Positions 34,926 to 53,673 are shown, counted from the stretch's first letter. The stretch is DNA of 64,000 bases from Bacteroidales bacterium (GCA_016936665.1 JAFGXI010000024.1:7832-71831), one strand, 5' to 3'. Notes: generated by a model not told the origin, from the sequence alone. Program-made: numbers and translations.

Positions 34926-35900
34926 TTATTGTTTTTGTAAAAATCTCCCGTTTAAAAGGTTAAAAAGAGAATTAAAATACTTCTCGATAAAGATTGCTCC
35001 CAATAAACTAATTGTAAAACCGAGTATCGGATTGAATATACTTAAATAGCCAAAAGCATTTGGTAATGTTTTGCCAAAACCAGTGTTTATTAAATAATAT
35101 ATAAAGGGATGATATAAATAAATGAACAGCGAATAGTCTTTGCCCCAGTCGGATAATCTGTTATTTTGGATGTTAATTTTAGTTGTAAGAATAAATAAAC
35201 TTACAGAGCTAATGATAGTTCCAATTAGTAATTGGTGATCGTATTTGGGGTAGAAATAATGTTTGAAAAGTTGATTAGATTCTATGTATTGTAGTGCGAA
35301 TGATAGGATGAATATTATAAATATTATTTGGGTTTGAGTCTTGGAAAATTTAAATCTTGAAATAACTAAGCCGAAGTATAAAAAAGGAATTGATATAAAA
35401 AAACCGAATGTGTAATAATCTAAATTTATTCCCATTGTCACATCGTAGGAGTCAGAAAATAAGGCGGATAATAAGATTAATGAACTAATTAAAGGCAAGA
35501 GTCTAGTCCTTTTGATGTAATATATGTACCATAGAAAAAGATAACCAAATATTAATGACCCGATAAACCAAAGGTGAAAATATGTCCCAGTTAGTATGCT
35601 CGAAACTTCGAGTGTGAAACTTCTATTAACCAATAAATATACAAACGATGCTACAATGATTATTGATATTAAATTGACGATGTTTTTTTCGATCTTCCTA
35701 AAATCCAGAATTTTATTATCAGTAATTTTACTTTGAAGAAAGTACCCACTGCAAAGAAAAAAGAATGGAACAGCCCATCTTGCAGAAATTCTAATGTTAT
35801 CGACGTATTCTTCAGGCAAATAACCATATTTGGTATGTACCAACATTATAAAGAAAGCTCCAATAAATCTAAATAAATCGATTCCATTTTTCCTTTTCAT
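34926..35900 (-). CDS. Acyltransferase family 3 membrane protein (polysaccharide O-acyltransferase)
   Basis: About 10 TM helices. The N-terminal IDLFRFIGAFFIMLVHT motif is typical of Acyl_transf_3. Confidence 0.8.
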   Translation of the reverse strand: MKRKNGIDLFRFIGAFFIMLVHTKYGYLPEEYVDNIRISARWAVPFFFLCSGYFLQSKITDNKILDFRKIEKNIVNLISIIIVASFVYLLVNRSFTLEVSSILTGTYFHLWFIGSLIFGYLFLWYIYYIKRTRLLPLISSLILLSALFSDSYDVTMGINLDYYTFGFFISIPFLYFGLVISRFKFSKTQTQIIFIIFILSFALQYIESNQLFKHYFYPKYDHQLLIGTIISSVSLFILTTKINIQNNRLSDWGKDYSLFIYLYHPFIYYLINTGFGKTLPNAFGYLSIFNPILGFTISLLGAIFIEKYFNSLFNLLNGRFLQKQ

Positions 35901-35911
35901 ACGTTTTTATA

Positions 35912-37117: not shown

Positions 37118-37127
37118 CGTAAATGTT

Positions 37128-37742
37128 TTAATGAGTGATTTGTTTGATAACTTTGGCTGGTACTCCGGCCACAACACAATAAGGAGGAACGTCTTTAGTA
37201 ACAACCGATCCGCTTGCAACAACAGCCCCTTTTCCAATAGTAACACCTTTCATAATCATGCAATTCATAGTAATCCATGCATCATCTTCTATTACAATTG
37301 GTTTTTTAGTTCCTTCATCGGAGAAATGATCATCTACCTTATGAAAGTCGTTATCTATAATGATGTTGTAAGGTGCTATTCTTACGTTGTTGCCAATTAT
37401 AACCTTATGACTTACAGATATATGGCTTCCGTTCAATCGGGAATTATTACCGACGATTAATTTTGCTCCTCTATCGACAAATATTTTGGCTTTGTTGATG
37501 TTTGACCAAATTCGTACTTCGTTGCCGAGTTCTAAATAACCTTTATTTACAATCTGAGGTTTTTTATTGACAGAAATTAAAGATCCTTTTTTATTTACAT
37601 TTCTTAAGTACCATTGTCCTAACAGCATTTGCCAAGCCCCTTTTATCAGAATTATTAGAATTGATAAAAAACCATTTGGCTCTCCGGCATTTTTAAGGTC
37701 GACTTTTTTTTGTCGAATACGTTCTTTTATTCTATGTATCAT
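37128..37742 (-). CDS. Hexapeptide-repeat O-acetyltransferase
   Basis: Left-handed beta-helix repeats ([48 protein letters not shown]) and a VAGVPAKVI ending. Confidence 0.85.
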
Positions 37743-37746
37743 ATTA

Positions 37747-38727
37747 TTAGCTAAATTTTACAAAAGGTTCTGTTGTATCGTCGATGATTCTTTTTTTACC
37801 ATCGGAATCAATAAGTTTAGGAATAATATTAACTTGATGATGTGTGAGATGCCATTTAAGGGCGGCCCAAAACGCTATGAGTAATTTGTTTTCGCCCTCT
37901 AGTAATAGCTTTATACTGTTTTTGGGAACAGATAAAAGTGTAAAAAATACCAATGCTTTCAATTTAGTTAGCCCGCTTGTGTTTCTACGAGTGTAAAGCA
38001 ACCTACCTCTAGTCATATAATACATTCTTAAAGGCGAATTTTTACCCACCGACATCGATTCTTTATGATATACCACTGAACTTCCAACGTAAAAAACTTT
38101 ATAACCACCATTTTTAATTTTTTCGCACCAATCGTGTTCTTCGTAATAGAGAAAAAAGATATCGGGCATTAAACCTACTTCTTTAATAACAGTTGTAGGA
38201 ATCATCATTGCGGCACCATGCCCAAGTTGAGTTTCTCGAATATCGTTGTATTGCCCTTTGTCGTACTGAAACGAACCTATCTTTTCGCCTCGTCCGGTCG
38301 ATGGATTTATCCCTGTAGAACCGGCATATTGAATAGTATTCTTTTTTTCGCTGAAAAAAAATTTAATTTTTGGTGAAACTAAGCCTATTGAACTATCGGA
38401 TTCTAGTTGATAAACCAGAGGTTCTAAAAAATCGGGCTCAACTTCGGTATCGTTGTTTAGGAATAATAAATATTTACCATTTGCTTCGAGAATTCCTTGA
38501 TTGTTGCCCCCTGCAAAACCTAAATTTTTACCTGTTTTAATTAGTTTTATCTGAGGATACTTTTCCTCAATAATATCGGGGTTGTCGGAAGGAGAACCAT
38601 TATCTACAATAATGATTTCGATGTTAGGGTAAGTAATTCGTTTTAACGATTCGATCATATCGCAAGTCATTTGCGATTGGTTAAAATTGATCGAAATTAT
38701 ACTCACTAATGGAAACTCTTGATTCAT
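37747..38727 (-). CDS. Glycosyltransferase family 2
   Basis: [22 protein letters not shown] and YYEEHDWC motifs. Confidence 0.85.
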
Positions 38728-38840
38728 TATTTTAGATTTGAAATTTGAAGAATACTACTTTATACCTAAAAAAATAAAAAAAGTTCAACTTAGGTTAAAT
38801 AAAAAACAATGCCTTTACAGTAGTATAATACCAAGAGTGA

Positions 38841-40358
38841 TTATAGCGGTTTGATTTCGTTCTTTTTTGTCCAATAAATAGCTTCTTGTGTTTTTTCTTC
38901 TTCGGTAATTTCACCAAGTCTTTGGCGTTCAATTTTTATAGCCATTGTAATATATGCCATACTTGTGTATAGCATCACACTTGTAGGAATTTGACCTAAA
39001 ACACCGTTACCGTAAGAACAGAGCATAACACCGGCTTGGCCAGAGAGTAAAGCGGTCATTCTATTGATTATTATGGGGTCTCTTAGTTTGAACATAACTA
39101 AATATGTTCCATATAAAAGAACATAAAAAAGAATGAACAAATGCAATGTTAAGCCAATTACTCCAGTCTCTACCCAAACAGCAACAAACCAACTATCGGT
39201 AGGTACCGTTGCAAGATATGTATTCGGAGTAAAACGAGCAGCCCACTCAAAACTTTGACCAATGCCAGCGCCAATAGGCCTACTGGCCATGTATGTTTTT
39301 AAAATTTTTTGATTTCTCTTTCGTACCATTAACGAGGGGTTATCAGGATCGAAACCAGTTCGCATTCGTCTAATTTGGGCGTTCCCATTCATTATGGTAG
39401 TAAATCTGAAAAATATATAAATCAGAATCATAAGCGTGATTCCCGGAATGAGTAGTTTAAAGTTTTTCTTAAGCACAAGAAACATTAATCCACCAGCAGC
39501 AGGAGCAGCTATGGCTCCTCTTGTTCCGGAAATTAACATGCCGTAAAATCCAAGAAGAGAAACGATTAAATACAATCTTTTTCTTTTCTTGTTTTCGCAA
39601 CCCATCCATAATATTCCGAAAACAACGCCTGTAACAGCTTGTGCCGCTCCAAATTGCCCGGCATCGCTGTAGAATGAAAAAACTCGTAGTTTACCGAACA
39701 ATATATGTGTGCCTGCATTTCCCGCGTCTAACCATGCTTGTTCAGCAAAGTCGGGACCAACAAAAAGTTGCATGGCGCCTTTAATTGAACCGAGTATTGA
39801 AAATATTCCCCAAATCAATATAAATTGCTGAAAAGATTTATCATTATCTAAAAGCATCTGTACTAGCGGAATAATGAGAACCATGTACAATCCGACGCCT
39901 CTCGATGCAAAAAACCAAGCTTCTCTACTTGTGACTTCAGGATTCACAATTTCGAAAAGGATATATAAATACCATATAATTGCTAAATAGGTGATTGTGC
40001 TCGAAGCTTTATGCCATGGGACATGACGAGTTGTCGATTTAAAAAATAGAGATAAGTAAGACATTACCAGTAAACCATCTATACTTAAGCCTAATGGAGG
40101 TTTCCCTGGTATATAACGCAAAATGCCGATTGCGGCAAACGCCATAACCATTGTGCCAATAATACCAATTTTAGGATTAATAAATAATTTATTCATGAAG
40201 ATTGCTCCAAATGGTAAGCCAATAAAAGCCATCGTAGCAGCCATTCCACCTTTTCCTATTGCATAGCCTGATACGAAAGAAAGGAGCAGTATGAAAACAA
40301 TGCCAATGGCTGTTTTTAAAAAAGGTTTTTCTTTATAGAGTTGTTCATCAAAACTCAT
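38841..40358 (-). CDS. O-antigen polymerase/ligase-like membrane protein (Wzy-like)
   Basis: At least 10 TM helices with a central loop region. Its position next to the flippase fits a Wzy-type polymerase. Assignment rests on topology and context. Confidence 0.65.
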   Translation of the reverse strand: MSFDEQLYKEKPFLKTAIGIVFILLLSFVSGYAIGKGGMAATMAFIGLPFGAIFMNKLFINPKIGIIGTMVMAFAAIGILRYIPGKPPLGLSIDGLLVMSYLSLFFKSTTRHVPWHKASSTITYLAIIWYLYILFEIVNPEVTSREAWFFASRGVGLYMVLIIPLVQMLLDNDKSFQQFILIWGIFSILGSIKGAMQLFVGPDFAEQAWLDAGNAGTHILFGKLRVFSFYSDAGQFGAAQAVTGVVFGILWMGCENKKRKRLYLIVSLLGFYGMLISGTRGAIAAPAAGGLMFLVLKKNFKLLIPGITLMILIYIFFRFTTIMNGNAQIRRMRTGFDPDNPSLMVRKRNQKILKTYMASRPIGAGIGQSFEWAARFTPNTYLATVPTDSWFVAVWVETGVIGLTLHLFILFYVLLYGTYLVMFKLRDPIIINRMTALLSGQAGVMLCSYGNGVLGQIPTSVMLYTSMAYITMAIKIERQRLGEITEEEKTQEAIYWTKKNEIKPL

Positions 40359-41693
40359 TTAGTGTTTTAATATTTTTGTTGTGTAAAGGTTTTTATAAAA
40401 TAACCAGCCCGATTTAAAAACCATGCTGTAGTTAAAAGGTATCGATTTATTAAAGTAATAATTACCTATTAAAATACCAACAAGTGTCATCAATATTGTT
40501 ATTAACGCAACGCCAAAAATACTTTCGAAAACAAATACAGCTATTAGATCGCCAATAATATTTGATACTACCATAAAAATGACTTTATACATATTGTATT
40601 TTGGTAAGTTTAAAGTGTCTAAGCCAACTCCTGTAAAACGATCGAGAGGTAAAATTAGCCCGTAAATACAAAAGGCTTGGTATATGATTGCGGTTGAAAG
40701 ATATTGTTTTCCTCCTAAGATCTGAACAAAAAAATCGGCAAAAACAAAGTTGAAAATGGAAAAAGGGATAAATAAAAGGGTTAATGCTCCTGTGTAGGTG
40801 TAAAATAAGTCCCGAACTTTATTCAAATTGTTTTCGGAGCTGGCTTTAGCCATTTTTGGAAAAGATGTAGCAGCCATGCTTCTCAGTGGGATTTCCATGA
40901 CCTCGGTTAGTTTAAGAGGGACACTATATAGAGCAACCCCTTCTGCTCCAAGAATGGGACTTAACCCGATAATAAAAGCGTCTGCACTTTTTAAAATATT
41001 GCTTCCTATTAAAGTTGCTAATGTAAATTTTCCAAAATGAAAGATTTCTTTACTGGTTTCTTTTGTGGATTTGAAAAGGTATTTAATACCATCCCATCCC
41101 TTGATGAGGCTTAGTAATGAGGTAAATAAATTAAAAAATAAAAAGGCATAAACAACAATTGAAACATCGAATTTCCAAAGAAATAAGTTAAGGATTAAAA
41201 ATAGATCGAAAAATATTATATTGAATATTCTAAGTATAAGTATTTTACCAAAGGCTAATTGTGCTTGTAAAACCGTGAGTGCGTTATTGAATGGTAGAGT
41301 GACGATGGCTAATAGAGGATACCATTCGAAAAATAAACCAAAACCTGACGCTTCAATTTCAGATTTAAATAAATAATTAATTATAAAAACAGGAATTATA
41401 ATGATTCCGGAAACAATAATTCCAATCAACCAATTAGAGCCAATTAAAGATTTTTGTCTTTCGATGTCCGCACCTGCTAAAAACCGTACCATGGCTGTTC
41501 TAGTTAATCCAAATCTGAACATTTCGATAAAAGATGCTGTTGTAACAAACAATACCCACTGCCCGAAGATAGTTTTATCAAAGCTTCTGGTTAATAACAC
41601 AAAGCTTATAAAACCAAGTGCTGCATACGATAAATTACCTGCGAAAGACAAAAACTCTTCTTGCCTAAGTAACTTTTTAAACTTAGTTATCAT
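40359..41693 (-). CDS. Oligosaccharide flippase (Wzx, MOP superfamily)
   Basis: About 12-14 TM helices, and an N-terminal pattern (AGNLSYAALGFISFVLLTR) typical of polysaccharide biosynthesis flippases. Its stop abuts the Wzy-like start with no gap. Confidence 0.8.
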   Translation of the reverse strand: MITKFKKLLRQEEFLSFAGNLSYAALGFISFVLLTRSFDKTIFGQWVLFVTTASFIEMFRFGLTRTAMVRFLAGADIERQKSLIGSNWLIGIIVSGIIIIPVFIINYLFKSEIEASGFGLFFEWYPLLAIVTLPFNNALTVLQAQLAFGKILILRIFNIIFFDLFLILNLFLWKFDVSIVVYAFLFFNLFTSLLSLIKGWDGIKYLFKSTKETSKEIFHFGKFTLATLIGSNILKSADAFIIGLSPILGAEGVALYSVPLKLTEVMEIPLRSMAATSFPKMAKASSENNLNKVRDLFYTYTGALTLLFIPFSIFNFVFADFFVQILGGKQYLSTAIIYQAFCIYGLILPLDRFTGVGLDTLNLPKYNMYKVIFMVVSNIIGDLIAVFVFESIFGVALITILMTLVGILIGNYYFNKSIPFNYSMVFKSGWLFYKNLYTTKILKH

Positions 41694-41700: not shown

Positions 41701-43923
41701 TTAATTTATTTTTTTGCTAGAATTAAACTGGAACTTAATAAGTTGTTTTACAAGTCGTCTAAAGAATCCTCGTTTTTTAGGAATTTCACCAATAATGCTT
41801 TCTAAAATATCGATTTCGACACCGTTGGTTAATACTTCTGTCTCGGTTTTCTCAATTACAGTTTTTTTGAAACTGTTTAATACGTTCGTTTCGGCTTCAC
41901 TCCAAGGTCTGTTTGCTCTAGCGATCATAAGTGCAAAATGTACGTTTCTTAACATCCTTACGGGCGTAGGGTAGTGAAGTATAGATGGGATTTCCAGAAA
42001 AATAAAATCAAACTTTTCGTAATCGGTTTCCAGTAATTTTTCAAAAAAACAATCGACTTTAAAGTCGTTCGACATTAAGTCTTCGAAATTGTAATAATGG
42101 CAACCTAATTCAATATCGTTATCACTAATTCTTCCATCGATTTTATAATTAAAAAATGCAACGTTAAAACCATTTCGCATGTGTGCATTGTGCAAACGTC
42201 TTGCAATAGTACTCTTTCCGTCTCCTTTTGCGGTACTAAAAATTACTGTAATGAACGGTTTATGTATTTGCGCCGAATTGTAATTAAATGCTTTTTGTCT
42301 GATTTTTTGAGCAATTTCGTCGGTAGTTCGCTTGAGAATAAAATCTAAATCTACTTTTTTATTTGTTTTGTATAGATTCGGAAAAGCTCCGGCATATTCT
42401 AAGTTAGTTAATTTCGATAATCGTTTATGAGATTTAATTGAGCTATCAAAATACTCCATGATAATTAATAAGAAAATGGTTAATATAATACCGGCAAAAC
42501 CTGCTCCTACAATCATTACCGACCGTTTAGATGCTTTTGGAACGACAGGATAAAATGGAGGGTCGATAATGTCGAGATTGGTAGACATTTCGATGTTTCT
42601 TTGCATTATTTTACTCTCATTTAAACCTTGTAAAATTGATAGATATTCTCGTTCGGTCACGCTTATTTGTCGCTCAATACGCATCATAGTTGCTCCCAAC
42701 GGAGCATACTCGGAATATACTCGCTTTAAATCGTTTATTTTTTCTTTGTATATCGATATTCTTGCATTGCTTTCTTCGTGTAAAATAATTTGTTCTAACC
42801 ATTTGGTCATTAAATCTTGTTGACTTAGTCCTGCTGTTGTATTTTCTACAATACCAATTTCTTTAATAATTTGATTAAGTTCGTCTTTAATGTTTTCCGA
42901 CTTTGCATAAAGGGCAGAAAGTTCTGCGGAGTAATTTTCTTTATTATCGGTTTTTACTTCTAAAAGGGCGATTTTTGTGGTTATTTCCGAAAGTTCATTT
43001 CTCAAATCGATCATGTTAGAACTTTTTAAGAGCGTTTTGTTTCTTCTGTTTAGCTGATCTTCTATTTTAATGATAGAGGCTTTTGCGGCTGCAGATTGCA
43101 TCAGTTCTTGTTGAAATAATAACTCTATATCTTCGCGGAGCTTAGATATATGTTTGGTTTGCTCATAATAGTTTATAATTTTATTATCCTTGTTAAAATT
43201 TAAAAGAGTTTGCTCTGCTTGATCTAATTTGCCTTTTACTATACTTAGTTGATCTTCGAAATAACCAACCACACTGTGCGTTTCGCCTTCTTTTATTTTT
43301 TGATAGTTTTTAATAAAAACTTCATTTAAAATTTTTAAAGTTTGATAACAAACTCCGGCATCATCTGCATCAAAGTTTATTTCAATTAAATCGCTGTTTG
43401 AAATTCTCTTTACAGAAATTCCAGAAACAGCATCGATGCTATAGTAAGGGTGTTTTCCGTGTAATAATTTGTATATAAAATTGTTACCTCCATTTTGGTA
43501 ATCTGCCCAAAGTTGATCAAAAATTAGTGATTCGTTGTTTGAAGGCTTAATCTTAAGAGAATCGAATACGTTCTTTTTAACATCTTTATAATGTTCAATA
43601 GAAATTAGATTCCCATCTATTTTTTCGATGGCCATATGTTTTGCAAGTAATCTTATGGCAACTTCTTCGTAGGTCTTTCGGGCCTCAATAATATTGATAA
43701 GGTTATCGAAAGCGGCCTGTGTTTTTAAGTAATCGAAATTAGCATTACTGACCGATTTTAGATTTAAACCAGTTCCAAAACCAGTATAAATAATTGTTTT
43801 CGATGAGTACGATTTTGGAAGATTGGCAGTCAATGAGATTACTACACCGACGAGAATTACAGGAACAATAAATATTATTTTTATGTTCTTAAGGATTAAT
43901 CTTATGAGTTGAATAATGTTCAT
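41701..43923 (-). CDS. Wzc/GumC-like polysaccharide co-polymerase with a divergent C-terminal P-loop domain
   Basis: N-terminal TM helix plus Wzz motif; long coiled-coil periplasmic region; GNVR-like IIDPPFYPVVPKASKR plus a second TM helix. The C-terminal domain has Walker A-like STAKGDGKST, no DxDLR Walker A' motif and no C-terminal Tyr cluster. Confidence 0.75.
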   Translation of the reverse strand: MNIIQLIRLILKNIKIIFIVPVILVGVVISLTANLPKSYSSKTIIYTGFGTGLNLKSVSNANFDYLKTQAAFDNLINIIEARKTYEEVAIRLLAKHMAIEKIDGNLISIEHYKDVKKNVFDSLKIKPSNNESLIFDQLWADYQNGGNNFIYKLLHGKHPYYSIDAVSGISVKRISNSDLIEINFDADDAGVCYQTLKILNEVFIKNYQKIKEGETHSVVGYFEDQLSIVKGKLDQAEQTLLNFNKDNKIINYYEQTKHISKLREDIELLFQQELMQSAAAKASIIKIEDQLNRRNKTLLKSSNMIDLRNELSEITTKIALLEVKTDNKENYSAELSALYAKSENIKDELNQIIKEIGIVENTTAGLSQQDLMTKWLEQIILHEESNARISIYKEKINDLKRVYSEYAPLGATMMRIERQISVTEREYLSILQGLNESKIMQRNIEMSTNLDIIDPPFYPVVPKASKRSVMIVGAGFAGIILTIFLLIIMEYFDSSIKSHKRLSKLTNLEYAGAFPNLYKTNKKVDLDFILKRTTDEIAQKIRQKAFNYNSAQIHKPFITVIFSTAKGDGKSTIARRLHNAHMRNGFNVAFFNYKIDGRISDNDIELGCHYYNFEDLMSNDFKVDCFFEKLLETDYEKFDFIFLEIPSILHYPTPVRMLRNVHFALMIARANRPWSEAETNVLNSFKKTVIEKTETEVLTNGVEIDILESIIGEIPKKRGFFRRLVKQLIKFQFNSSKKIN

Positions 43924-43933: not shown

Positions 43934-44695
43934 TTACCAATCGCTGGGTTGATTGAGATTAACCTTGTTTATTTCACCAATTAATTCCATCAGAATTAAA
44001 TAAGAAATTCTAAAATCCATTTTTGCTTTTAAATAGTCGGCTTCTGCTTTAGTCGATGCTTCCATTACTTTAGTTAACTCGTATATGGTTAAGTTTCCAT
44101 TTTTTTGATCGTTGTTTGTTTTGGTTAATTGCATTTGTGTAGTTGTAAACGCTTTGTTTTTTACAATTATTAACTGCTTATTGAGTTGATATTCATTGTA
44201 TTGTTTAATAACAAGTTTTCGTATCTCGTCGTGTATCTGTTGGCGTTCGAGCCTGCTTACTTCAATTTGTTGACGAGCAATGTTATTTTGGTTTTTTTGA
44301 TCTAAAAAAGTTAAAAACGACATTTTGAGATACACCCCAACAGAGTATCTCGAATCGGTTGTTTTTGCGCTGGTAATGTCGTCGGTTTGTCCTATGTTCT
44401 GAATATTAACATTGTCCATCGATCCATATTTATAGTAGCTTTCGATGCCAATGTCGTCGAGCCATTCTTTTTGAATACTTTTAAGCTCGAATTGTCGAAT
44501 GGCTGTATTAATATCTGCCGATTTTAATAGGGGAGATTTTTCTAATGCTTTTTCTATCGCAATATCTAAAGTCGGAACATTAAGTAAACTATCGCTCAGA
44601 TCCAAACTTGGAGGAACAATTGTATCCTGAGATAAGCTTAAGTTGTTAATAAATATCGTAAGAATTAATATCAGTTTAAAACAAAAAAATTTCAT
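43934..44695 (-). CDS. Small TolC-like (outer membrane efflux protein repeat) secreted protein
   Basis: Signal peptide. LDIAIEKALEKSPLLKSADINTAIRQFELKS and later coiled segments resemble a single OEP/TolC repeat. At 253 aa it is about half a canonical TolC. Confidence 0.5.
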   Translation of the reverse strand: MKFFCFKLILILTIFINNLSLSQDTIVPPSLDLSDSLLNVPTLDIAIEKALEKSPLLKSADINTAIRQFELKSIQKEWLDDIGIESYYKYGSMDNVNIQNIGQTDDITSAKTTDSRYSVGVYLKMSFLTFLDQKNQNNIARQQIEVSRLERQQIHDEIRKLVIKQYNEYQLNKQLIIVKNKAFTTTQMQLTKTNNDQKNGNLTIYELTKVMEASTKAEADYLKAKMDFRISYLILMELIGEINKVNLNQPSDW

Positions 44696-45846
44696 ACGTC
44701 TTCTGTTTGTAACAAGGCTTTTGCGGTTCTAATTAATAATACTATATCGCCCCAAAATGTATAAGTTCTGGCATAAGTGTTGTCGAGTTGTTTTCGTTCT
44801 TCGTTCGACATATCGGACTTTCCTCGTTTTGTAACTTGCCATAATCCTGTGATGCCTGCGGGGGCTAAAAAGCGTTCGGAGTATTGGTCGGAGGTCAACA
44901 CTTCGGCTTCGTACAATGGGATGGGTCGGTTGCCTACAATAGACATGTCTCCTTTTAAAACATTAACTAATTGAGGCAATTCATCGATACTTGTTTTGCG
45001 AATAAAACGTCCTACTTTGGTAATTCTAGGGTCGTTTTGAATTTTAATAAATGCTTTTTCTTTTTTGTTTCTTTGTTTTAAAATATAATCGCTTTCAGAG
45101 ATCATTTCATTGTCTGAAATGAGCATGGTTTCGCCATTGTCTGCATATGTTTTTTCTGGTGATTTTTCGCTAATTATAGGAATATCTTCTTTGTTGTATT
45201 GGTTTAGATGGGCGAGGTCTTTCAGCCGTTTGTCTGCATCGACGTACATCGATCGGAACTTGTAAAAGTCGAATATTTCATATCCCATTCCAACCCGTTT
45301 ACTAGAATAAAAAAAAGGGCCTTTAGATTCTAATTTCAGCAGAATTATAACCAATAAAAAAATTGGTGAAAGCATTAACAAAGCAAAAAGAGCAAAAACG
45401 ATATCGAAAATTCGTTTGGCGAACGGGATTTTTAGTTGATGTTTTTTACTTTTAAATTTGTTGAAACTCAATTTGTTTGTTTTGTATTTTCTTAAAAAAT
45501 TAAGCCTTTTATCTATATTCTCAATCGAAACAGGCTTAGGATAAATGTCGTCAATTTTTTTAAAAAGAGCATCTTCTATTTGATCTTTACTTGGCGTTGA
45601 ACTTTGAAAAATAATAAATGGAATTCCTCTAAAATATAAGGTTGAAAAGACTTGTTTATGGAAGTCTTTTGACGAAATTCCTTTGGTTGATTCATCAAAA
45701 ATTACGGCGTAGATTAGCCCTTTTTTGCTTATTAGCTTTTGTGCTAAAAAAGGATCTGGCGATACTTCTGTTTCAAAAAGAGTTGATTTGTTTAGCTCAT
45801 CTACTATAGATTGGTCGTTGCCAATATATATTAATTTTTCAGCCAT
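44692..45846 (-). CDS. Initiating polyprenyl-phosphate glycosyl-phosphate transferase with an N-terminal receiver-like domain
   Basis: The C-terminal Bac_transf domain has KRIFDIVFALFALLMLSPIFLLV, GPFFYSSKRVG, YKFRSM, DPRITKVGRFIRKTSIDELPQL, VLKGDMSIVGNRP and GITGLWQV. The N-terminal about 125 aa show a REC-like pattern (KLIYIGND, AVIFDES, IPFIIFQSS, DIYPKPV). Confidence 0.85.
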   Translation of the reverse strand: MAEKLIYIGNDQSIVDELNKSTLFETEVSPDPFLAQKLISKKGLIYAVIFDESTKGISSKDFHKQVFSTLYFRGIPFIIFQSSTPSKDQIEDALFKKIDDIYPKPVSIENIDKRLNFLRKYKTNKLSFNKFKSKKHQLKIPFAKRIFDIVFALFALLMLSPIFLLVIILLKLESKGPFFYSSKRVGMGYEIFDFYKFRSMYVDADKRLKDLAHLNQYNKEDIPIISEKSPEKTYADNGETMLISDNEMISESDYILKQRNKKEKAFIKIQNDPRITKVGRFIRKTSIDELPQLVNVLKGDMSIVGNRPIPLYEAEVLTSDQYSERFLAPAGITGLWQVTKRGKSDMSNEERKQLDNTYARTYTFWGDIVLLIRTAKALLQTEDV

Positions 45847-45891
45847 AATTATTCGTTTAGTTGTTTGAGTCGTTTAAAAACAGTTGAAGAC

Positions 45892-46260
45892 TTATTTTAA
45901 AAAAATTCCTACTTTAAGTTTTAGTTCTTCTGGATTGAAAGGTTTAACTAGATAATCGTTGGCTCCGAGCTTTAACATTTTAATTCTTTCTTCGCTACTT
46001 TCTATACCGGAGAGCATTATTATTGGAATATTGCTAAAAATACCGGTTGATTTGATTTCTTGTACAAATTCTTCACCACTCATTACCGGCATTTGAATGT
46101 CGCAGATAATTAAATCTGCCATGTTTCCGTCTTGTAACCATTCTAAAGCTTGAGATCCGTCTTCGGTTGAGTGAACGTGGTTTTCTTTGCCTAATACTGT
46201 CTCTAATATTTTTCTTACAGAGATTGCATCTTCAATTACTAAAATCTTTTTCATATTCAC
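45892..46260 (-). CDS. Stand-alone response regulator receiver protein (CheY-like)
   Basis: KILVIEDA, LIICDIQMPVMSG, IPIIMLSG and DYLVKPF are canonical REC motifs. At 122 aa there is no output domain. Confidence 0.9.
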   Translation of the reverse strand: MNMKKILVIEDAISVRKILETVLGKENHVHSTEDGSQALEWLQDGNMADLIICDIQMPVMSGEEFVQEIKSTGIFSNIPIIMLSGIESSEERIKMLKLGANDYLVKPFNPEELKLKVGIFLK

Positions 46261-46415
46261 TATTTGGTTAAATTTAGGTTTATATTTATCTATTGAATTA
46301 ATAATCTTCTTTTTATAAAAATAAATTAAGATCTAATGTTTTGTTTTTCAACTATTACGCATATACGCTTATAAATGTTCTGTTTTTGGCAAAAATATAG
46401 TTAGCAGATTAGCAG

Positions 46416-48617
46416 TTAATATGTTATTACTTTGAATTCAGTACGTCTGTTTATGCGAAATTCCTCTTCGGAGCATGGCGAGTTGTTTGTACATCGATTG
46501 ATGGGGTACTTTTCTCCGTAGCCTTTGTATTTCACTCTCCCATGTGCAATGCCCTTGCTTACAATGTATTTAAAGGCTTCTAAAGCTCTTTTGTTTGATA
46601 GTTCTAGGTTGTATTTAAAGCTGGCTCTCGAATCGGTGTGAGAGCTTAGCTCTATTACGATATATGGGTTTTGATTTAGAATCTTCACGATCTTGTCTAA
46701 TTCTTTTTTCGAATCCTCATTTAAGTCCCATTGGTCGGTTTCGTAATAGATGTTTTTCAATACATAAGCTTGGTTTAAATGAATCTTGTTTAGGTGTAAA
46801 TATAAATCGTAGTACAAGGTCGTATTATTCATTTTTTCAGTGTTAAATTGGTTTGCTTGTTCGTTGAAATACCCTTCCTTTTGAACAAAAATCTGGTATT
46901 GACAGTTGGTATCGAGTGTAAAATTGAATAGCCCATTTTTATCGGTATAATGGTATTCGGAAAGTTGATATGTTTGGTTTGTTAAAATAACTTTTGCAGA
47001 GTCGAGTGCAATATTTTGTTCTTCGTCAAACACTTTGCCTTTAAGTTCTAACCATTGTTCAGGCTCAAGTTGAATAACAATTTCGTTATTTTTTATACCT
47101 TCAAAGTTCTCATGGAAGTATAGAAACTTTTTGGTGTGGTAATTAGGCTTGCTGATTATGAATTCGTAATCTTCGAGAGGATTAATTAAACTTTCTAATT
47201 CTCCATTTTGATTCGTTTTTGCTTTGTATTCTCTCAAGTTTTTTTGATAATATACATCGACAAACTCTAACTCTTTTTTGGTTTTGTTTTCTATCACTTT
47301 TATTTTTAAATGCTGATAAAAGTTTTCGTTGCTTTTGAAAAAATATATGTCGTCGCAACCTTTACCATTAGGTCTGTCTGAACTAAAAAAACCTTCATCT
47401 TCATCAATCTCCGAAATGAAAAATGAAAAATCGTCCATGCTAGAGTTAATGGGGCTTTTCAGATTTTGAGGGTACGACCAAAAGTAGCCGTTGTAGTTCG
47501 AAACATATATGTCTAAACCACCTAAGCCAACTAAACCATCCGACGAAAAATATAATTGATGATTTATTATAAACGGAAACATTTCATTTCCAGCGGTATT
47601 AATTGTTTTACCTAAGTTAACTGGTGTGCTCCAATTTTCATTAATTTTTCTGGAAATATATAGGTCTGTACCACCAAACCCGCCAGGTTTGTCGGAAACA
47701 AAAAATAGCATTTGAAGTTGCTCATCGAACCAAGCGTGACCAACTGAAAATGTTGGACGATTGTATTCGAATTCTTTTATAAATTTAAATTCACCATTGC
47801 TTTCTATTTGATATAGATATAAACCTAATACATTATCTTTTAGATTGGAATTGAATTTTTTATACGATTTCTGATTGGCAGTAACCCAACAATATTTATT
47901 TCCGTTTTCTATCCAAATAGGACCATCGTGATACGTTTTGTTGATAGCATCGCTTAGCGATATCGGATTTGCAAAATCGGCATAATCATTTTGCCCTTGT
48001 TTTTCGGAATAGTAAAGCTCGTAATAGGGTTGATCTGTCCATTTGTATTTTTTTAAACTTGTGTTTTTTAATCCGTTCGAAGAAAATACAATACCCTTGT
48101 TATATTCTACTGCTCCAAAATCTGAAAAGCTAGTATTTATATTTAGGTTCGATATCGTATATTTTTCATTGGCTTGATCTAATAAATTATATTCCAGAAT
48201 TGATCTGTATAAATTGTTTGCATAGCTGTCGTTAGGATATGTTTTTAAATACAGAGAAACATACTCGTTGGCTTCGTCAATCGATTTCAGACGAATAAGT
48301 ACATCGGCAATTTTAAGTTGAGCAGAGTAATAATTCGGCTTTTTTTTTAGTATTGCCAAATAGTTATTTTTAGCCTTATAGTATTGTTTTGTTTTAGCAT
48401 ATGCATCTGCTAGATTAAGTATATGATGAATGTTTTTTAAACTGTCGAATTTTTTGTAATGAAATAGTTTTTCGTACTTTTTAATACATAAACTGTATTC
48501 TAAATTGATGAACAGTTTTTCGGCTTTATCTAGTTTTTTTTCAGTCTGAGCATATGTATTCAGCCGGAGTGAAAAAACTAAAAATAACAGAGCTATATTT
48601 TTGAAATTCAGCATCAT
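46416..48617 (-). CDS. OmpA family protein with TPR, PD40-like and CarboxypepD_reg-like regions
   Basis: The C-terminus (IELSSHTDSRASFKYNLELSNKRALEA...INRRTEFKVI) is a canonical OmpA_C domain. The N-terminus has TPR-like helices and the middle has PD40-like repeats. Its start overlaps the PorP/SprF stop (TAATG). Confidence 0.85.
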   Translation of the reverse strand: MMLNFKNIALLFLVFSLRLNTYAQTEKKLDKAEKLFINLEYSLCIKKYEKLFHYKKFDSLKNIHHILNLADAYAKTKQYYKAKNNYLAILKKKPNYYSAQLKIADVLIRLKSIDEANEYVSLYLKTYPNDSYANNLYRSILEYNLLDQANEKYTISNLNINTSFSDFGAVEYNKGIVFSSNGLKNTSLKKYKWTDQPYYELYYSEKQGQNDYADFANPISLSDAINKTYHDGPIWIENGNKYCWVTANQKSYKKFNSNLKDNVLGLYLYQIESNGEFKFIKEFEYNRPTFSVGHAWFDEQLQMLFFVSDKPGGFGGTDLYISRKINENWSTPVNLGKTINTAGNEMFPFIINHQLYFSSDGLVGLGGLDIYVSNYNGYFWSYPQNLKSPINSSMDDFSFFISEIDEDEGFFSSDRPNGKGCDDIYFFKSNENFYQHLKIKVIENKTKKELEFVDVYYQKNLREYKAKTNQNGELESLINPLEDYEFIISKPNYHTKKFLYFHENFEGIKNNEIVIQLEPEQWLELKGKVFDEEQNIALDSAKVILTNQTYQLSEYHYTDKNGLFNFTLDTNCQYQIFVQKEGYFNEQANQFNTEKMNNTTLYYDLYLHLNKIHLNQAYVLKNIYYETDQWDLNEDSKKELDKIVKILNQNPYIVIELSSHTDSRASFKYNLELSNKRALEAFKYIVSKGIAHGRVKYKGYGEKYPINRCTNNSPCSEEEFRINRRTEFKVITY

Positions 48618-49546
48618 TAGAAAAATCTTGGTGAGTATGTCTTGTTTTTTCTACTTATCAAGTTATAACCTAAAGTAATCTCGTGAGAACCATTTTGATA
48701 TGCCGATAGTTTACCGATAGTTAAGTTGTATGCATAACCAAAATATAAGTTTTGATAATAAAACATAAGATTAAAATTGATAGCATCGTTAAAATGGTAT
48801 CCTATGCCTAGTAAATACGTTTCTTTTAATATGAAATTTGCATTTAAATCGAGTTGATTTGGAGCCCCATAGATTAGTTTGTATACGGCAATTGGTTTAA
48901 ATGCAATGGTATTATAAATAGGGAAATTGTACGACCCAATAATATAATAATGCCATTGTTTATCGTTGGTTTCAGTAGTGCTTTCGAAAGATGAGTTTTT
49001 TGGATAGGCATTCGTAAATAGTTGAGGGATATCTATACCAATGTACCATCGATGACTGTACCATAAAAAACCTATCGAAGCCGAAGGTTTTAAATAATTT
49101 TCAATACCTACATTAAATTTTGGGTCGGAAGTCTCAATATTTTCTAGTTGGGTATAATCTATATTAATAAAATTGGCGCCCAAACTTATTCCGAATGCAA
49201 GTTTTGTTTCGTCGAATTTAATATGATATGCAAATTTTCCATTGAGGCTTTGTGTTTTACTGAGTCCAATATTTTCCGAAATAAACTCTAATCCTAGTCC
49301 AAGGTTTTTGTCTTTAATAGTACTGTTGTAAATAATTACATGGTTTTTTGGGGCTCCTTCAATATTCAACCATTGTTGCCTGAATTTGTAAAATAAATGA
49401 CTCCTTTCGTTTTTTCCCACAAACCCATTATTTATTATAGACTCACTTTGTTCAATTTGAGAAAATCGATAATTATTTTGAGTATATAATTGCACACTGT
49501 AAAGCATCAAAATAAATATCAATAATATAGTATACGATTTTTTCAT
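48617..49546 (-). CDS. T9SS membrane protein of the PorP/SprF family
   Basis: About 309 aa barrel with signal peptide, RFSQ..., FRQQWLNIEGAP, LGLGLEFISENIG and a C-terminal ..SPRFF, matching the PorP/SprF pattern. It begins 4 nt after the type B cargo gene. Confidence 0.85.
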   Translation of the reverse strand: MKKSYTILLIFILMLYSVQLYTQNNYRFSQIEQSESIINNGFVGKNERSHLFYKFRQQWLNIEGAPKNHVIIYNSTIKDKNLGLGLEFISENIGLSKTQSLNGKFAYHIKFDETKLAFGISLGANFINIDYTQLENIETSDPKFNVGIENYLKPSASIGFLWYSHRWYIGIDIPQLFTNAYPKNSSFESTTETNDKQWHYYIIGSYNFPIYNTIAFKPIAVYKLIYGAPNQLDLNANFILKETYLLGIGYHFNDAINFNLMFYYQNLYFGYAYNLTIGKLSAYQNGSHEITLGYNLISRKNKTYSPRFF

Positions 49547-49550
49547 AGGT

Positions 49551-52500
49551 TTACTCTTTAACGATGATAAAACCTGTTTTATAAAAATTAATCTCGGCGA
49601 TTTCTACAATGTAATAGTAGGTTCCGTCAGGAACTCTGGATTGATTGTATATGCTTTTAGCACTAGCATTGTAATACTGTCCATTCCAATTGTTCTGATA
49701 ATCTTCAGATTCAAACACAAGATTTCCCCAACGATTAATAATCTGCACTTTAACGTTTTCATAGTTTTGTATCCCTTCAATGTGCCAATAATCGTTAAAT
49801 CCATCATTGTTAGGGCTTATTGCATTTGCAATTAAAATGTTTTCTTGTAATAAACATTTAATAATTATATAAGCCGAGTCACATTGGTAATAATCTTCAG
49901 TTTCACAAATTTTATACTTAAATATTTCAATACCAATGAAATTTTCATCTGCTTTATAATCGATGTAAGGCCAATGGTCTGTTAATGCTCCATAAATCGT
50001 ATTGGTTCTACGGGTAATTTCAAAAGCTTGGTTTTCTAGATTATAATCATTATCCAATGGATTAAATGTGATAGTTTGGTTTTGCTTCACTTCTATTGTG
50101 TCGTTTAAGGCAACTAGAGGAGAATTTTGATGCTCGGTATTTTCTATTATTACAATTAAAACATCGCATAATGAATAAAGAGCGTTATCGCAAACACTTA
50201 TAGCAAGCGTATCAAAACCGATAAAGTTTTCGTTCGAAGTGTATTTAATACAAGTGTCAGAGTTATTCACGAAGTACGCTTCCCCATTTGGTGGAAAAAT
50301 ACTAATTGTACTCGAAATTTCGTCGTTGTTTGCATCCACATAACTAAAGCAAAATTCAAGAGTAGAGTCGGTTTCTGTCGAAAAGTATAAAGTGTCAATT
50401 AAGATTCCATCATAAATAATTTCGGGACCAACATTAGTGTCGTTTACTGTGATAATTACCCAAACATTATCGCATGATGAATTCCAATAATTATCACATA
50501 CACAAATGTTTAATGTGTCACAACCAATAAATCCGTTATTTGGCTTGTAAACAAAGCAACTATCAGTATTGCTATTAGAAAATATTGTACTGTTGTTAGT
50601 GTTTGAGCAAATAAAGTAATGTATACTGTCGGAATCTTGATCGTATGCTTCAATGCAAAATTGAATTTCAACACCGAGGTCAGTAATAAAATAGATGGTG
50701 TCTACTTCTAAGCCATTATCGGTAATCACAGGGGCACTGTTTGTATCGACAATGTTTACAATGTACCAAATAGTATCGCACAAGCTCCACCAATGATTAT
50801 CGCAAACCACAATTGCAAAAGTGTCTGCTCCTAAATAATAAATTTCCCCTATATAAGAGTAACAAGAGTCTATGCCTGAAATATTATTCAAACTTCCGTT
50901 TTCTGGTGTAGAAAATATTTGATAAGAAAGCATTTCATTATCAGGGTCGAAAGCATCGATGCAAAAAAAATATTCTTCGCCGTATTGAAGTTCAAAATAA
51001 ATAGTGTCAACCTCGAGGCCATTATTGGTAATCACAGGGGCATTGTTTGTATCTGTAATATTTATAACAATCCAAAGGGTATCGCATAATGAATAAATAT
51101 TATTATCGCATAGCATTAGGCACATAGTGTCGTTGCCAATGTAATTAGTTTGAGGCTGAAAAGTAAAACAACTGTCATCGGGGTTTGTATCGAGTATACT
51201 ACCATAAGTAGGTAATAGCATCGGGTTAAATTCTATACTATCTTGCTCGTTATCAAAAAGGTTTAGGCAAATATCTTGACTTTGGTTACTATTTATTTGA
51301 ACGTAAATCGTATCGTTGTTTGCGTTTTGTTCGAATGGGGAAGTGTTATTGCTTACCACATTAATGTAAATCGATGCCGTGTCAGTAAAAGTGGGGTCAT
51401 TTATTTGCTGTATAATATATTTAATAGAATCTATTCCCAAAAAATTTAAATTTGGAATGTATTCGATTAGAGAATCATTAAGAACAGTAGCATTTCCGTT
51501 AAAAGGGGGTGTGAGAATTATATTTTTTAATCCACTTAAAATAAAATCTATATCGTTGTTTTGGTTGTGAATTATACTCGTTTCGTTTGCATTTACATAA
51601 ACCGTGTCGTTTATTGCAATTGGATTCGTAGCTACATAAAAAATTTCAGCGGCAGCTTGACTATACACCGTGTTGCTTTGAAAATTAAAAGTATCCATTA
51701 ATGCATTTAATTCAGTTTGAGAAACAATAATGTAGTGTGTTTCAAAGGTGCTCATTTCAATTGGACAAGTCCATGTGTTAGCCATATATCCACTTAATAT
51801 GGTGTCTAAATACCAATGGCTACTTTGAGGTTTGATGTATATTTTTAAATCATTTCCATTTCCGGAACCGATTAAAGTGAACGTTTGTGAGTTATTATTA
51901 TCGATATAAAAAGAAGGTCCTTCGAATATGCTAGGATTACTTGAGTTTATGTTGACATTATTTGCGTTGAATCCATCGGTTCGTATTCTACCATCGGACC
52001 CGTTCCCTCCATTATTGGCCATAGATCCATCTCCTGATGGCAAACCATAAAGACCACCATCTACTGTAATATTAGCGTTATTAATAAAACCGTGTTTTGC
52101 GCCTAAAATAACAGCTCCGCCAGCACCACCACCTCCACCAGAGCAAGTATTAAGAGGGGCATATAAATCAACACCATCTAAACCGTTCGATCCATTCGAT
52201 GAAATGCCACCTTCAATATTTACAATTCCAAATGTATAGATAGAAATTGCGCCACCACCGCCACCACCGGAGCCTCCTTTGTTAAGAGCCCAAACATTGC
52301 CGGCTCCACCTCCAGATCCTCCAAACAAAGGCGATAATTGTTGATTTCCATGTGCTCGCCCGCCATTAGAGCTGGCATTGCCTTCTCCTGTATCGCCATT
52401 GTGGGCATTTCCACCACCACCTCCTCCATAGGTAGGAGGATTAGCAACCGATTCTTCACCACCTGCGCTACCAGCTCCATAACCACCAAGTTCCGGAGTC

Positions 52501-53450
52501 TGAATGCCTACAGGACCCATTCTGCCGCTACTTCCAAAAGGATGACCAGTTCCACCTCCGGCTCCTTGGTCGCAAAACCCTATGCCTCCCTTAATTCCGT
52601 TGATACTATAATTACCCATTAATAAACTGTCGTTTTCTTCTTCCGGGATAATTAAACCTGTCGATTCTCCAGAATAATTCGGTGTGCTTGCATTAACTTT
52701 GCAACTAAAACCTCCGGAAGTAAAGCCACTACCTCCATCGCCATCTCTTGAGCCAGCTCCGCCACCACCACCTCCAGCTCCGGCATCTTTCCCGCTTGCA
52801 TTTACACTTAATATAGTGCCAGATGAGATAGAAACATTACCTAAACTAATAATATTGATAGGCAAATACGATTGATTTCCTTCAACAAAAGGGTCGCAAT
52901 CTTGAGTTGAGAAGTTATAAGTGCCAACCCCGCTTAATTGAATAGAATCTACTATTATAGCTCCTGCTCTCGATCTAATGGTGTTTGTTGAAGAACCAAT
53001 TGTTTGTGGTGAATTGAGTACAATTGCGGATTGAGGAGCAACAATGTAAAACGTATCTATGTTAGTTTGCACACTGTTTACAACAACGGAGATTGGAATT
53101 TTAAACTCATTCTCAAGTTCAGACCAATTGCTGGAATTTGGAATCAAACCTGGTTTGATAAAAAAATGCACACCAATTAATCGGCCATGCCAAGACACAT
53201 TTATAGGTGAAATTATCACTTTATTAGTGTCTAAGACAGAGGTGCAAATCACTCTGACGGAGCTATTTTCGTCGTTCAAATAAAAACCATCGTTGCCAAA
53301 TGAATGATACTGACTCTTTAAGGCAATTATTTCTACATATGTGTTGTATCCAGGTGTCCCAATATCAGGAATGATATAGCTTTTAGGTTGGCCTAATGCA
53401 TAGAGTGAAGTTAAAAATAATAAAAGGAGAAATGCAATTTTATGAGTCAT
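49551..53450 (-). CDS. Giant cell-surface protein with a T9SS type B (gliding motility-associated) C-terminal domain
   Basis: Start trimmed to MTHKIAFLLLLFLTSLYALGQ (signal peptide). It has a Gly-rich region and at least 4 tandem repeats of about 101-102 aa. The C-terminus NAISPNNDGFNDYWHIEGI...VQIINRWGNLVFES...VPDGTYYYIV matches the type B CTD (TIGR04131-like) pattern. Confidence 0.85.
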   Translation of the reverse strand: MTHKIAFLLLLFLTSLYALGQPKSYIIPDIGTPGYNTYVEIIALKSQYHSFGNDGFYLNDENSSVRVICTSVLDTNKVIISPINVSWHGRLIGVHFFIKPGLIPNSSNWSELENEFKIPISVVVNSVQTNIDTFYIVAPQSAIVLNSPQTIGSSTNTIRSRAGAIIVDSIQLSGVGTYNFSTQDCDPFVEGNQSYLPINIISLGNVSISSGTILSVNASGKDAGAGGGGGGAGSRDGDGGSGFTSGGFSCKVNASTPNYSGESTGLIIPEEENDSLLMGNYSINGIKGGIGFCDQGAGGGTGHPFGSSGRMGPVGIQTPELGGYGAGSAGGEESVANPPTYGGGGGGNAHNGDTGEGNASSNGGRAHGNQQLSPLFGGSGGGAGNVWALNKGGSGGGGGGAISIYTFGIVNIEGGISSNGSNGLDGVDLYAPLNTCSGGGGGAGGAVILGAKHGFINNANITVDGGLYGLPSGDGSMANNGGNGSDGRIRTDGFNANNVNINSSNPSIFEGPSFYIDNNNSQTFTLIGSGNGNDLKIYIKPQSSHWYLDTILSGYMANTWTCPIEMSTFETHYIIVSQTELNALMDTFNFQSNTVYSQAAAEIFYVATNPIAINDTVYVNANETSIIHNQNNDIDFILSGLKNIILTPPFNGNATVLNDSLIEYIPNLNFLGIDSIKYIIQQINDPTFTDTASIYINVVSNNTSPFEQNANNDTIYVQINSNQSQDICLNLFDNEQDSIEFNPMLLPTYGSILDTNPDDSCFTFQPQTNYIGNDTMCLMLCDNNIYSLCDTLWIVINITDTNNAPVITNNGLEVDTIYFELQYGEEYFFCIDAFDPDNEMLSYQIFSTPENGSLNNISGIDSCYSYIGEIYYLGADTFAIVVCDNHWWSLCDTIWYIVNIVDTNSAPVITDNGLEVDTIYFITDLGVEIQFCIEAYDQDSDSIHYFICSNTNNSTIFSNSNTDSCFVYKPNNGFIGCDTLNICVCDNYWNSSCDNVWVIITVNDTNVGPEIIYDGILIDTLYFSTETDSTLEFCFSYVDANNDEISSTISIFPPNGEAYFVNNSDTCIKYTSNENFIGFDTLAISVCDNALYSLCDVLIVIIENTEHQNSPLVALNDTIEVKQNQTITFNPLDNDYNLENQAFEITRRTNTIYGALTDHWPYIDYKADENFIGIEIFKYKICETEDYYQCDSAYIIIKCLLQENILIANAISPNNDGFNDYWHIEGIQNYENVKVQIINRWGNLVFESEDYQNNWNGQYYNASAKSIYNQSRVPDGTYYYIVEIAEINFYKTGFIIVKE
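50139..51353 (-). repeat. Four tandem coding repeats of about 303-306 nt (101-102 aa) in the adhesin gene
   Basis: Unit starts at 51353 (SNNTSPF), 51050 (TNNAPVITNNGLEVDTIYF), 50744 (TNSAPVITDNGLEVDTIYF) and 50438 (TNVGPEIIYDGILIDTLYF). Each unit ends ..CDN..(Y/W)S(L/S)CD..W.(V/I)..(I/V).D. More diverged units flank on both sides. Confidence 0.8.
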
Positions 53451-53673
53451 TGTCGTCGTTATTTTTGCGCTTTTCCTATTACGACAGATTATAGACCTCG
53501 GTTTCAAAAAAAAATGAAATCGCTTTTTTGTTCAAACATAAAGGAATAAAGATGCTCGATAATTTGAGCTTTTGATAGGTTTTCTTTACTTTCGTAAGTT
53601 TTTATAAAAGATAAATTATAGTTATAAAAGCATCTAATTATTAGAGCTTTAAACTTTATTAAATGGAATAATC

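Follow-up and report, generated by a model that had tools for sequence, protein, structure and literature searches.

A predicted pseudo-receiver fused to an initiating phosphoglycosyl transferase is paired with a free response regulator across Bacteroidota

The initiating phosphoglycosyl transferase (PGT) of a polysaccharide pathway commits scarce undecaprenyl phosphate (Und-P) and nucleotide sugars, and how this step is throttled is largely unknown. To our knowledge, there was before 2025 no example of a two-component protein acting directly on an initiating PGT. In Myxococcus xanthus, the phosphorylated form of the single-domain response regulator (SDRR) EpsW, EpsW~P, directly stimulates the initiating PGT EpsZ at the post-translational level, and the authors of that study (Schwabe et al., mBio 2025, PMC12802240) propose a stabilisation of the active EpsZ dimer by EpsW~P. 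Here, we analysed a gene pair in a 64,000-nt stretch of DNA from a Bacteroidales bacterium (GCA_016936665.1 JAFGXI010000024.1:7832-71831; hereafter the window, with coordinates counted from its first letter), in which an SDRR gene is followed by a gene for a PGT with a receiver (REC)-like domain at its N-terminus. An earlier note on this DNA knew of no characterisation of this control point, a view that the EpsW/EpsZ system has made out of date.

The window pair resembles EpsW/EpsZ in that a single-domain receiver with an intact site is encoded together with a Wzx/Wzy locus and its initiating monotopic PGT (monoPGT), and in that the window SDRR gives a weak match (63 bits, against a cutoff of 200) to the NCBIfam EpsW model. 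The PGTs themselves differ: EpsZ, a large monoPGT, has a four-helix bundle plus a DUF (domain of unknown function), whereas the window PGT consists of a small core with a fused pseudo-receiver. In addition, because the scores against the equivalog models NF041866 and NF041877 (63 bits vs 200 and 162 vs 800) are far under the cutoffs, the window proteins are not orthologues of EpsW and EpsZ. The window also belongs to the phylum Bacteroidota, no chemosensory (Dif) kinase lies nearby, and the SDRR-PGT interaction is a proposal of the present analysis.

The published classes of monoPGT are small, bifunctional and large (PMC10942596), and the window PGT falls in the bifunctional class, since its small core carries an N-terminal fused domain. 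Bifunctional monoPGTs (Bi-PGTs) with fused receiver domains are catalogued in the sequence-similarity network that PMC12802240 and PMC10942596 cite from O'Toole, Imperiali and Allen (2021), and in PMC12802240 small monoPGTs fused to receiver domains are attributed to O'Toole et al. 2021. The window PGT shares with these Bi-PGTs an extra domain N-terminal to the small monoPGT core; as cited, the fusion was listed there without a functional study. Small monoPGTs are reported to work as monomers, and the mechanism of the receiver-fused members may therefore differ (PMC12802240, Discussion). Receivers are not mentioned in a 2024 preprint on monoPGT annotation, and a search of the Bacteroidetes literature on the SDRR/REC-PGT pair returned nothing relevant. 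The REC-PGT fusion and a related control mechanism, EpsW/EpsZ, are already known; the paired arrangement was not found in the literature searched, relative to which the family-wide pseudo-receiver, its constant canonical free-receiver partner and the conserved dimerisation face appear to be new.

Pseudo- or atypical receivers that signal without phosphorylation include FrzS, ChxR and the PRR/TOC1 family of plants, which has Glu as its acceptor residue, and we know of no description of a canonical free-receiver pairing for any of them. The fused domain of the window PGT is like these proteins in that the receiver fold is kept, the acidic pocket is lost, Glu occupies the acceptor position in most fused-REC members and the dimer surface is retained; it is unlike them in being fused to a membrane enzyme and in always occurring with a canonical free receiver. 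A second group for comparison comprises PleD and WspR (REC-GGDEF) and PorX (REC-PglZ, of the Bacteroidota type IX secretion system), in which a long alpha5 linker likewise connects an N-terminal receiver with an enzyme domain, and both PleD and PorX were among the top sequence and fold matches of the fused domain. The receivers of these proteins are phosphorylated themselves, whereas the fused domain in the window has lost the site.

Both genes of the pair lie on the minus strand. The SDRR gene (45892..46260, -) encodes 122 residues from a GTG start, with the true start likely at an ATG two codons in (46254), and matches the Pfam family PF00072 (Response_reg) with an E-value of 1.7e-27. After a gap of 45 nt, the next gene (44692..45846, -) encodes the REC-PGT fusion, a bifunctional-type small monotopic PGT of 384 residues, as assigned from Pfam, NCBIfam, AlphaFold2 (AF2) and Foldseek. 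The genes are co-oriented and probably co-transcribed, and a scan of the window sequence found no minus-strand terminator between them; reading through both genes in frame meets two stop codons. For the window SDRR, alignment with CheY and 24 syntenic orthologues showed a canonical phosphorylation site made up of E10, D11, D54, S84 and K106. Among the 25 sequences, these five positions were D/E in 23, D in 19, D in 22, S/T in 25 and K in 24, respectively. Judged by its residues, the window SDRR is apparently phosphorylatable, and the gene is the canonical single-domain response regulator that the earlier note had recognised.

For the N-terminal part of the PGT, searches with the single sequence failed to reveal a receiver. 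Residues 1-143 had no Pfam match at E<=0.1, and a phmmer search of the PDB with the N-terminal sequence gave chance-level matches only, with no REC domain among them. A phmmer search with residues 1-140 against 1.84 billion representatives returned 17 matches, mostly of PGT-like or fragment lengths, and the two matches of odd length (P0127, 4530 aa; P0134, 501 aa) aligned only over short repeated stretches. The search contained no hint that the domain occurs in other architectures, and it is of no use for estimating the size of the family. The receiver homology is visible only through the family profile and the fold. Because the single sequence reveals no receiver, the record that matches the PGT exactly (P0001, from a Bacteroidales metagenome-assembled genome (MAG)) is annotated plainly as a 'sugar transferase'.

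Conversely, the family as a whole exhibited clear receiver homology. In the sample of the 120 best full-length homologues, which share 46-66% identity with the PGT over the whole length, precomputed Pfam assignments held PF00072 together with PF02397 in 83, and the receiver was below Pfam detection in 37. These assignments place the window protein in a sub-clade whose receiver has drifted under the Pfam threshold. A family profile (A3) made of 35 N-terminal domains matched 258 REC chains in the PDB, the best being PleD (3e-20) and PhoB (4e-14), and CheY was matched as well. In hhalign comparisons, the fused domain scored 99.4% with the neighbouring SDRR, 98.9% with PhoB and 97.9% with CheY.

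The AF2 model, which was built on 111 homologues, showed residues 1-130 with predicted local distance difference test (pLDDT) values of 85-95 and in the strict (beta-alpha)5 order from beta1-alpha1 through beta5-alpha5. The elements are beta1 (3-8), alpha1 (12-19), beta2 (24-29), alpha2 (32-41), beta3 (47-51), alpha3 (59-67), beta4 (77-81), alpha4 (87-95), beta5 (100-103) and a long alpha5 (108-132), the last of which joins the receiver to the re-entrant membrane helix. In Foldseek, the N-terminal part matched the receivers of PmrA, CheY4, ArlR and KdpE with template modelling (TM) scores of 0.78-0.83 and root-mean-square deviations (rmsd) of 2.1-2.8 A. The agreement of model, fold search, family profile and hhalign indicates that the N-terminus of the PGT, about 130 residues, has a CheY-like receiver fold, as had been proposed from its sequence landmarks; the predicted domain comprises residues 1-132 (45451..45846, -).

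The earlier note had named, as one alternative that would overturn this assignment, the cytoplasmic domain without catalytic function that is common to large WbaP-type PGTs, a DUF (CoA_binding_3). The N-terminus of the window PGT shares with that DUF only its position N-terminal to the catalytic core. It has no PF13727 match and no four-helix or N-terminal transmembrane bundle, the stretch before the re-entrant helix amounts to only 141 soluble residues, and all profile matches and all fold matches of the N-terminal domain are receiver domains. The Foldseek match to WbaP (8t53) stems from the catalytic part (TM 0.31, rmsd 20 A, 399 columns). The WbaP-type assignment was rejected, with next to no probability left to it.

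The phosphorylation site of the fused domain was compared with that of CheY across 111 relatives, in a register taken from the CheY, PhoB and neighbouring-SDRR alignments together with the loop length in the model. At the position of CheY D12, the window PGT has G9, and Gly was found in all 111 relatives. The position of D13 is N10, which is acidic in 19. The acceptor position (CheY D57) is D51 in the window, with Glu in 87 relatives, Asp in 23 and Ser in one. At the T87 position, the window has Q81, followed by S82, and Ser or Thr occurs in 23; the K109-P110 position is K104-P105, with Lys in 70 relatives and Arg in 13. The placement of G9 and N10 at D12 and D13 follows from the loop length of the model and from two of the three alignments, and the third, with PhoB, instead sets D11 in the column of the second acidic residue; whichever register is used, no more than one of the two carboxylates is present. 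D11 would be the residue after the acidic pair, because the beta1-alpha1 loop of the model has three residues, as in CheY and PhoB.

Accordingly, the landmarks that had been read from the sequence held in part: D51 as the acceptor and K104-P105 stand, whereas the first acidic pair is G9/N10 instead of N10-D11, and the residue at the T87 position is Q81 instead of Ser. The acidic pair for Mg2+ binding is absent from the fused domain. Since the site is degenerate across the family, the alignments indicate that the fused domain is a pseudo-receiver that has probably lost the phosphorylation chemistry; a pseudo-receiver had earlier been raised as a possibility. The accompanying idea that both receivers compete for a kinase is weakened, because the fused domain lacks the acidic pair family-wide and its acceptor is mostly Glu.

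The 18 members of the window's own clade are less degenerate, with an acceptor Asp in 14 and with K104 and D11 in all 18. Together with the PhoB alignment, which puts D11 in the second acidic column, and with the Hpt proteins found near the gene pair at four loci (L004, L086, L019 and L023), this pattern would suit an alternative in which the fused receiver is itself phosphorylated on D51, at least in this clade, and the SDRR serves as a competing phosphate sink or as a relay partner. Such phosphorylation seems improbable in view of the Gly at the first acidic position in every relative, the Asn at the second position and the Gln at the Thr/Ser position in the window protein. In 78% of the family, Glu occupies the acceptor position, which argues that phosphorylation is not what selection maintains. 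In addition, the mean information content was 1.92 bits for the N-terminal domain vs 3.31 bits for the catalytic domain, by which measure the N-terminal domain evolves much faster and is less constrained.

The positions of the fused domain that are invariant or nearly so are Y7, G9, D11, G56, P76, D99, D100, P105, R114 and L118. Among these, D100 is kept in 106 of the relatives and R114 in all of them, and in hhalign the two residues align exactly with D101 and R115 of PhoB. In PhoB, D101 and R115 form a pair in the alpha4-beta5-alpha5 dimer, and R115D is partly rescued by the charge swap D101R (PMC4511772). D100 and R114 mark the receiver dimerisation face, which is the fused domain's best-conserved surface. 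Because these residues are conserved and match the PhoB dimer pair, selection appears to maintain the receiver-receiver interaction face and the extended alpha5, and not the phosphorylation pocket. In contrast to the OmpR/PhoB dimers, the window PGT has no DNA-binding domain, and a heterodimer with the SDRR is hypothetical, the SDRR having D102 and K116 on its dimer face, with Lys replacing the Arg.

A Y-x-G-x-D signature at the end of beta1 (residues 7-11; 45814..45828, -) was also observed, in which Y7 and G9 are invariant and D11 is conserved at 95%. The signature is conserved beyond any residue of the phosphorylation site, and no explanation considered here accounts for it.

The arrangement of the two genes was compared over 27 distinct fused-REC loci, comprising the window, 4 loci reached through look-ups of exact proteins and 22 that came out of scanning species-representative genomes. 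The patterns used in the scan were the most conserved peptides, which belong to the catalytic domain, and 54 of the 80 loci listed were generic PGTs, which were used as a negative control. An SDRR of 121-155 aa was found immediately upstream and on the same strand at 27 of the 27 fused-REC loci, all in Bacteroidota, and at none of the 54 generic non-Bacteroidota PGT loci from the same scan did an SDRR adjoin the PGT. The carriers belong to Bacteroidales, Prevotella, Bacteroides, Flavobacterium, Lacinutrix, Thermaurantimonas, Sediminibacterium, Pedobacter, Mucilaginibacter, Desertivirga, Rufibacter, Dawidia, Fulvivirgaceae, Saprospiraceae and Chitinophagaceae, and the adjacency is kept across Bacteroidia, Flavobacteriia, Cytophagia, Sphingobacteriia, Chitinophagia and Saprospiria. 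An OEP-like gene, a chain-length-determinant-like gene, Wzx and Wzy are likewise common to the 27 fused-REC loci. For four loci (L001, L004, L085 and L086), the conserved order was SDRR, REC-PGT, an OEP-like protein (~250-260 aa), a polysaccharide co-polymerase (PCP)-like protein (730-910 aa), Wzx and Wzy. The window follows the same order and continues with glycosyl- and acyltransferases.

By these gene orders, the SDRR/REC-PGT pair is a conserved module across Bacteroidota. Its conservation at every fused-REC locus examined points to a functional link between the SDRR and the PGT, as the earlier note had suggested. The two genes could instead be mere genomic neighbours, the SDRR regulating something unrelated and the fused domain being a decaying remnant without function. 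The quick divergence of the N-terminal domain would fit such decay, as would the failure of Pfam to detect it in the window protein and in the 37 nearest relatives mentioned above. This explanation is very improbable, however, given that the adjacency is retained across the Bacteroidota classes, that Y7, G9 and R114 are invariant, and that the domain is of full length and confidently folded.

The reading that we prefer, to which we assign a probability of roughly 0.45, is that the PGT is modulated by docking of the phosphorylated SDRR (SDRR~P) on its fused pseudo-receiver. In this mechanism, the free SDRR would be the phospho-acceptor, and the donor would be a histidine kinase or an Hpt relay encoded elsewhere. 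The phosphorylated SDRR would then pair with the fused pseudo-receiver via the alpha4-beta5-alpha5 face, and the pairing would, by way of the alpha5 linker, shift the PGT's conformation or oligomeric state. Polysaccharide initiation would thereby be switched post-translationally, with both activation and inhibition compatible with the sequence. The pair would be a Bacteroidota counterpart of EpsW~P activating EpsZ, in which the fused pseudo-receiver replaces the EpsZ DUF as the docking domain. A more far-reaching proposal, which we put forward with greater doubt, is that of a 'split response regulator', in which a free, phosphorylatable receiver and the degenerate receiver fused to an enzyme would form an alpha4-beta5-alpha5 heterodimer and so control that enzyme. 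Through this heterodimer, a small monotopic PGT would have its activity or oligomeric state set, and the commitment of Und-P to a surface polysaccharide would be gated throughout Bacteroidota, gut Bacteroides and Prevotella among them. The switch would represent a second, mechanistically distinct answer to the problem that EpsW and EpsZ solve in myxobacteria. Overall, the analysis suggests that polysaccharide synthesis is turned on or off at its first step by a phosphorylation signal.

Several observations weigh against docking of SDRR~P on the pseudo-receiver. The 64-kb window holds no histidine kinase or Hpt gene. Certain SDRR orthologues are themselves degenerate at the site (L018 and L025-L030). 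The fused domain of more distant Bacteroidota, such as Prevotella, Bacteroides, Chitinophagia and Sphingobacteriia, has often dropped the Lys-Pro too, and in the wider Bacteroidota (Prevotella, Bacteroides and Chitinophagia) R114 is replaced. The predicted TM score (pTM) of the AF2 model is 0.54, so that the interdomain geometry is uncertain, and a dimerisation mechanism is not assured, since small monoPGTs are reported to be monomeric (PMC12802240). Finally, at two loci (L010, 5857..7143; L024, 2350..3609) the small PGT that has an SDRR directly upstream carries no fused REC domain, so that the SDRR may act on the catalytic domain or on another partner and the fused domain may not be strictly needed. 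The cassettes of L010 and L024 are natural controls for the docking site of the SDRR.

The SDRRs of these two loci lead to a further explanation, namely that the SDRR acts on the PGT catalytic domain or on the OEP and PCP export proteins, with the fused pseudo-receiver having an accessory role in autoinhibition, constitutive oligomerisation or localisation. EpsW of Myxococcus was modelled as contacting the catalytic domain of EpsZ as well as its DUF (PMC12802240), which is compatible with direct action on the catalytic domain, and the cassette always includes the OEP-like and PCP-like genes, which is compatible with action on export. We nevertheless consider this explanation unlikely, if deserving of attention, because the SDRR accompanies all 27 of the fused-REC PGTs, whereas the two REC-less PGTs that were checked in the same clade (L022 and L028) lack one, and because the dimerisation face is the most conserved surface of the fused domain.

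For the source of the phosphoryl group in the docking mechanism, the neighbourhoods of the cassette were informative in part. An NtrC-like sigma-54 activator was found within a few kb of the cassette at 6 loci, and an Hpt protein at the 4 loci named above, one Hpt match being just below the Pfam cutoff. The recurrence of these neighbours hints at a phosphorelay that feeds both transcriptional and post-translational control; they do not pinpoint the donor. The NtrC-like and Hpt neighbours, neither of which is in the window, are exemplified by L004 (560..2145) and L086 (7898..9593) and also occur at L023, L010, L013, L014 and L019.

The catalytic part of the window PGT (Bac_transf, residues 144-379; 44710..45417, -; Pfam E 1.4e-59) is intact. 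The motifs KFRSM (196-200), DPRIT (272-276), the D288-E289 dyad in SIDELPQL and GNRP (305-308) are present as they had been described, together with the open reading frames (ORFs) of the pair, and all are invariant in the 111 homologues. A re-entrant membrane helix was predicted at residues 142-174 (45325..45423, -) from the AF2 helix, a kink at S160-P161 and alignment to the re-entrant region of WbaP; P161 is invariant and S160 at least 90% conserved, forming a Ser-Pro break. In sequence, the catalytic part aligns to WbaP and PglC in the PDB, and Foldseek matched it to the PglC/WbaP-type fold (8e37, 6e-10; 8t53, 8e-10; 8g1n, 1e-9). NCBIfam placed the catalytic part among exopolysaccharide (EPS), WbaP and WcaJ sugar transferases, all below the cutoffs of models that describe large PGTs, and the scores against the WbaP, WcaJ and EpsZ models were far under the cutoffs. 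The features of large monoPGTs, a four-helix bundle and the PF13727 DUF, are absent. These matches indicate that the gene encodes a small monotopic PGT that commits Und-P to a Wzx/Wzy polysaccharide pathway.

Within the catalytic domain lies a clade-specific insertion (residues 201-271; 45034..45246, -), recognised from spacer length, pLDDT and the count of a Cys motif. The spacer between KFRSM and DPRIT is 71 aa in the window PGT vs 26-30 aa in generic PGTs and 31-37 aa in members from Sphingobacteriia and Chitinophagia. The insertion that had been put at about 55 aa is therefore real, its size being about 41-45 extra residues relative to generic PGTs or 58 relative to the Pfam model. It is partly disordered in the AF2 model, with pLDDT <50 at residues 220-235. 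In 77 of the 111 relatives, the insertion contains a CxxC...C...C motif, whereas the window's clade is Cys-free; the Prevotella/Bacteroides clade also lacks all four Cys residues and keeps the insertion. The four-Cys form may be a zinc-binding module inside a monotopic PGT, and the relatives concerned are those in A2 and at L001, L004, L007, L009, L017, L019, L020, L022, L023 and L028. The insertion is independent of the receiver fusion, since it is also found in the REC-less PGTs of L022 and L028.

For the region 5' of the SDRR gene, an AT-rich intergenic stretch (46261..46415, -) was read from the sequence and is presumed to be the promoter of an SDRR-PGT-export operon. A sigma-70 promoter scan was uninformative, because the promoters of Bacteroidota are not covered by that model. 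Directly upstream of the SDRR, 46416..53507 (-) holds a type IX secretion set, whose members are a 1318-aa Big_9/cadherin adhesin with a CHU_C sorting signal, a PorP/SprF protein and an OmpA/TPR/CarboxypepD_reg protein.

On the other side of the pair, the start of the next gene overlaps the PGT stop by 4 nt. This gene (43934..44695, -) encodes a TolC-like, half-size outer-membrane protein of 253 aa (Pfam OEP, E 6.7e-19), and it is followed by a gene for a chain-length-determinant (PCP)-like protein of 740 aa (41701..43923, -) with weak Wzz and GNVR matches and a degenerate C-terminal P-loop. The export part of the locus has no Wza/Poly_export gene and has instead these two proteins, a pair that is kept in all relatives inspected; the 740-aa Wzz/GNVR-like protein has no obvious Tyr cluster. 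The remaining Wzx/Wzy-dependent polysaccharide locus (32443..41693, -) comprises, by Pfam, genes for a Wzx flippase, a Wzy polymerase, a family 2 glycosyltransferase (GT2), a hexapeptide acyltransferase, a second GT2, an Acyl_transf_3 protein, a GT4 and a GT1. Within it, a GT2 ORF with a GTG start (35912..37246, -) overlaps the upstream hexapeptide-transferase ORF (37128..37742, -) by ~119 nt, and its true start is probably further downstream. Elsewhere in the window, 22569..26234 (+) encodes a 1221-aa protein in which a two-component-regulator propeller/Y_Y_Y sensor region is combined with an adenylate/guanylate cyclase and an HD domain.

If docking of SDRR~P on the fused pseudo-receiver is correct, the regulation of PGTs by free receivers would reach well beyond myxobacteria, and receiver control would work on small, supposedly monomeric PGTs. 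Pseudo-receivers would then serve as built-in docking modules for canonical receivers. Because the cassette is carried by cultured Flavobacterium, Pedobacter, Mucilaginibacter and Sediminibacterium as well as by Prevotella/Bacteroides MAGs from the gut, it is experimentally tractable and would bear on capsule, biofilm and host interaction.

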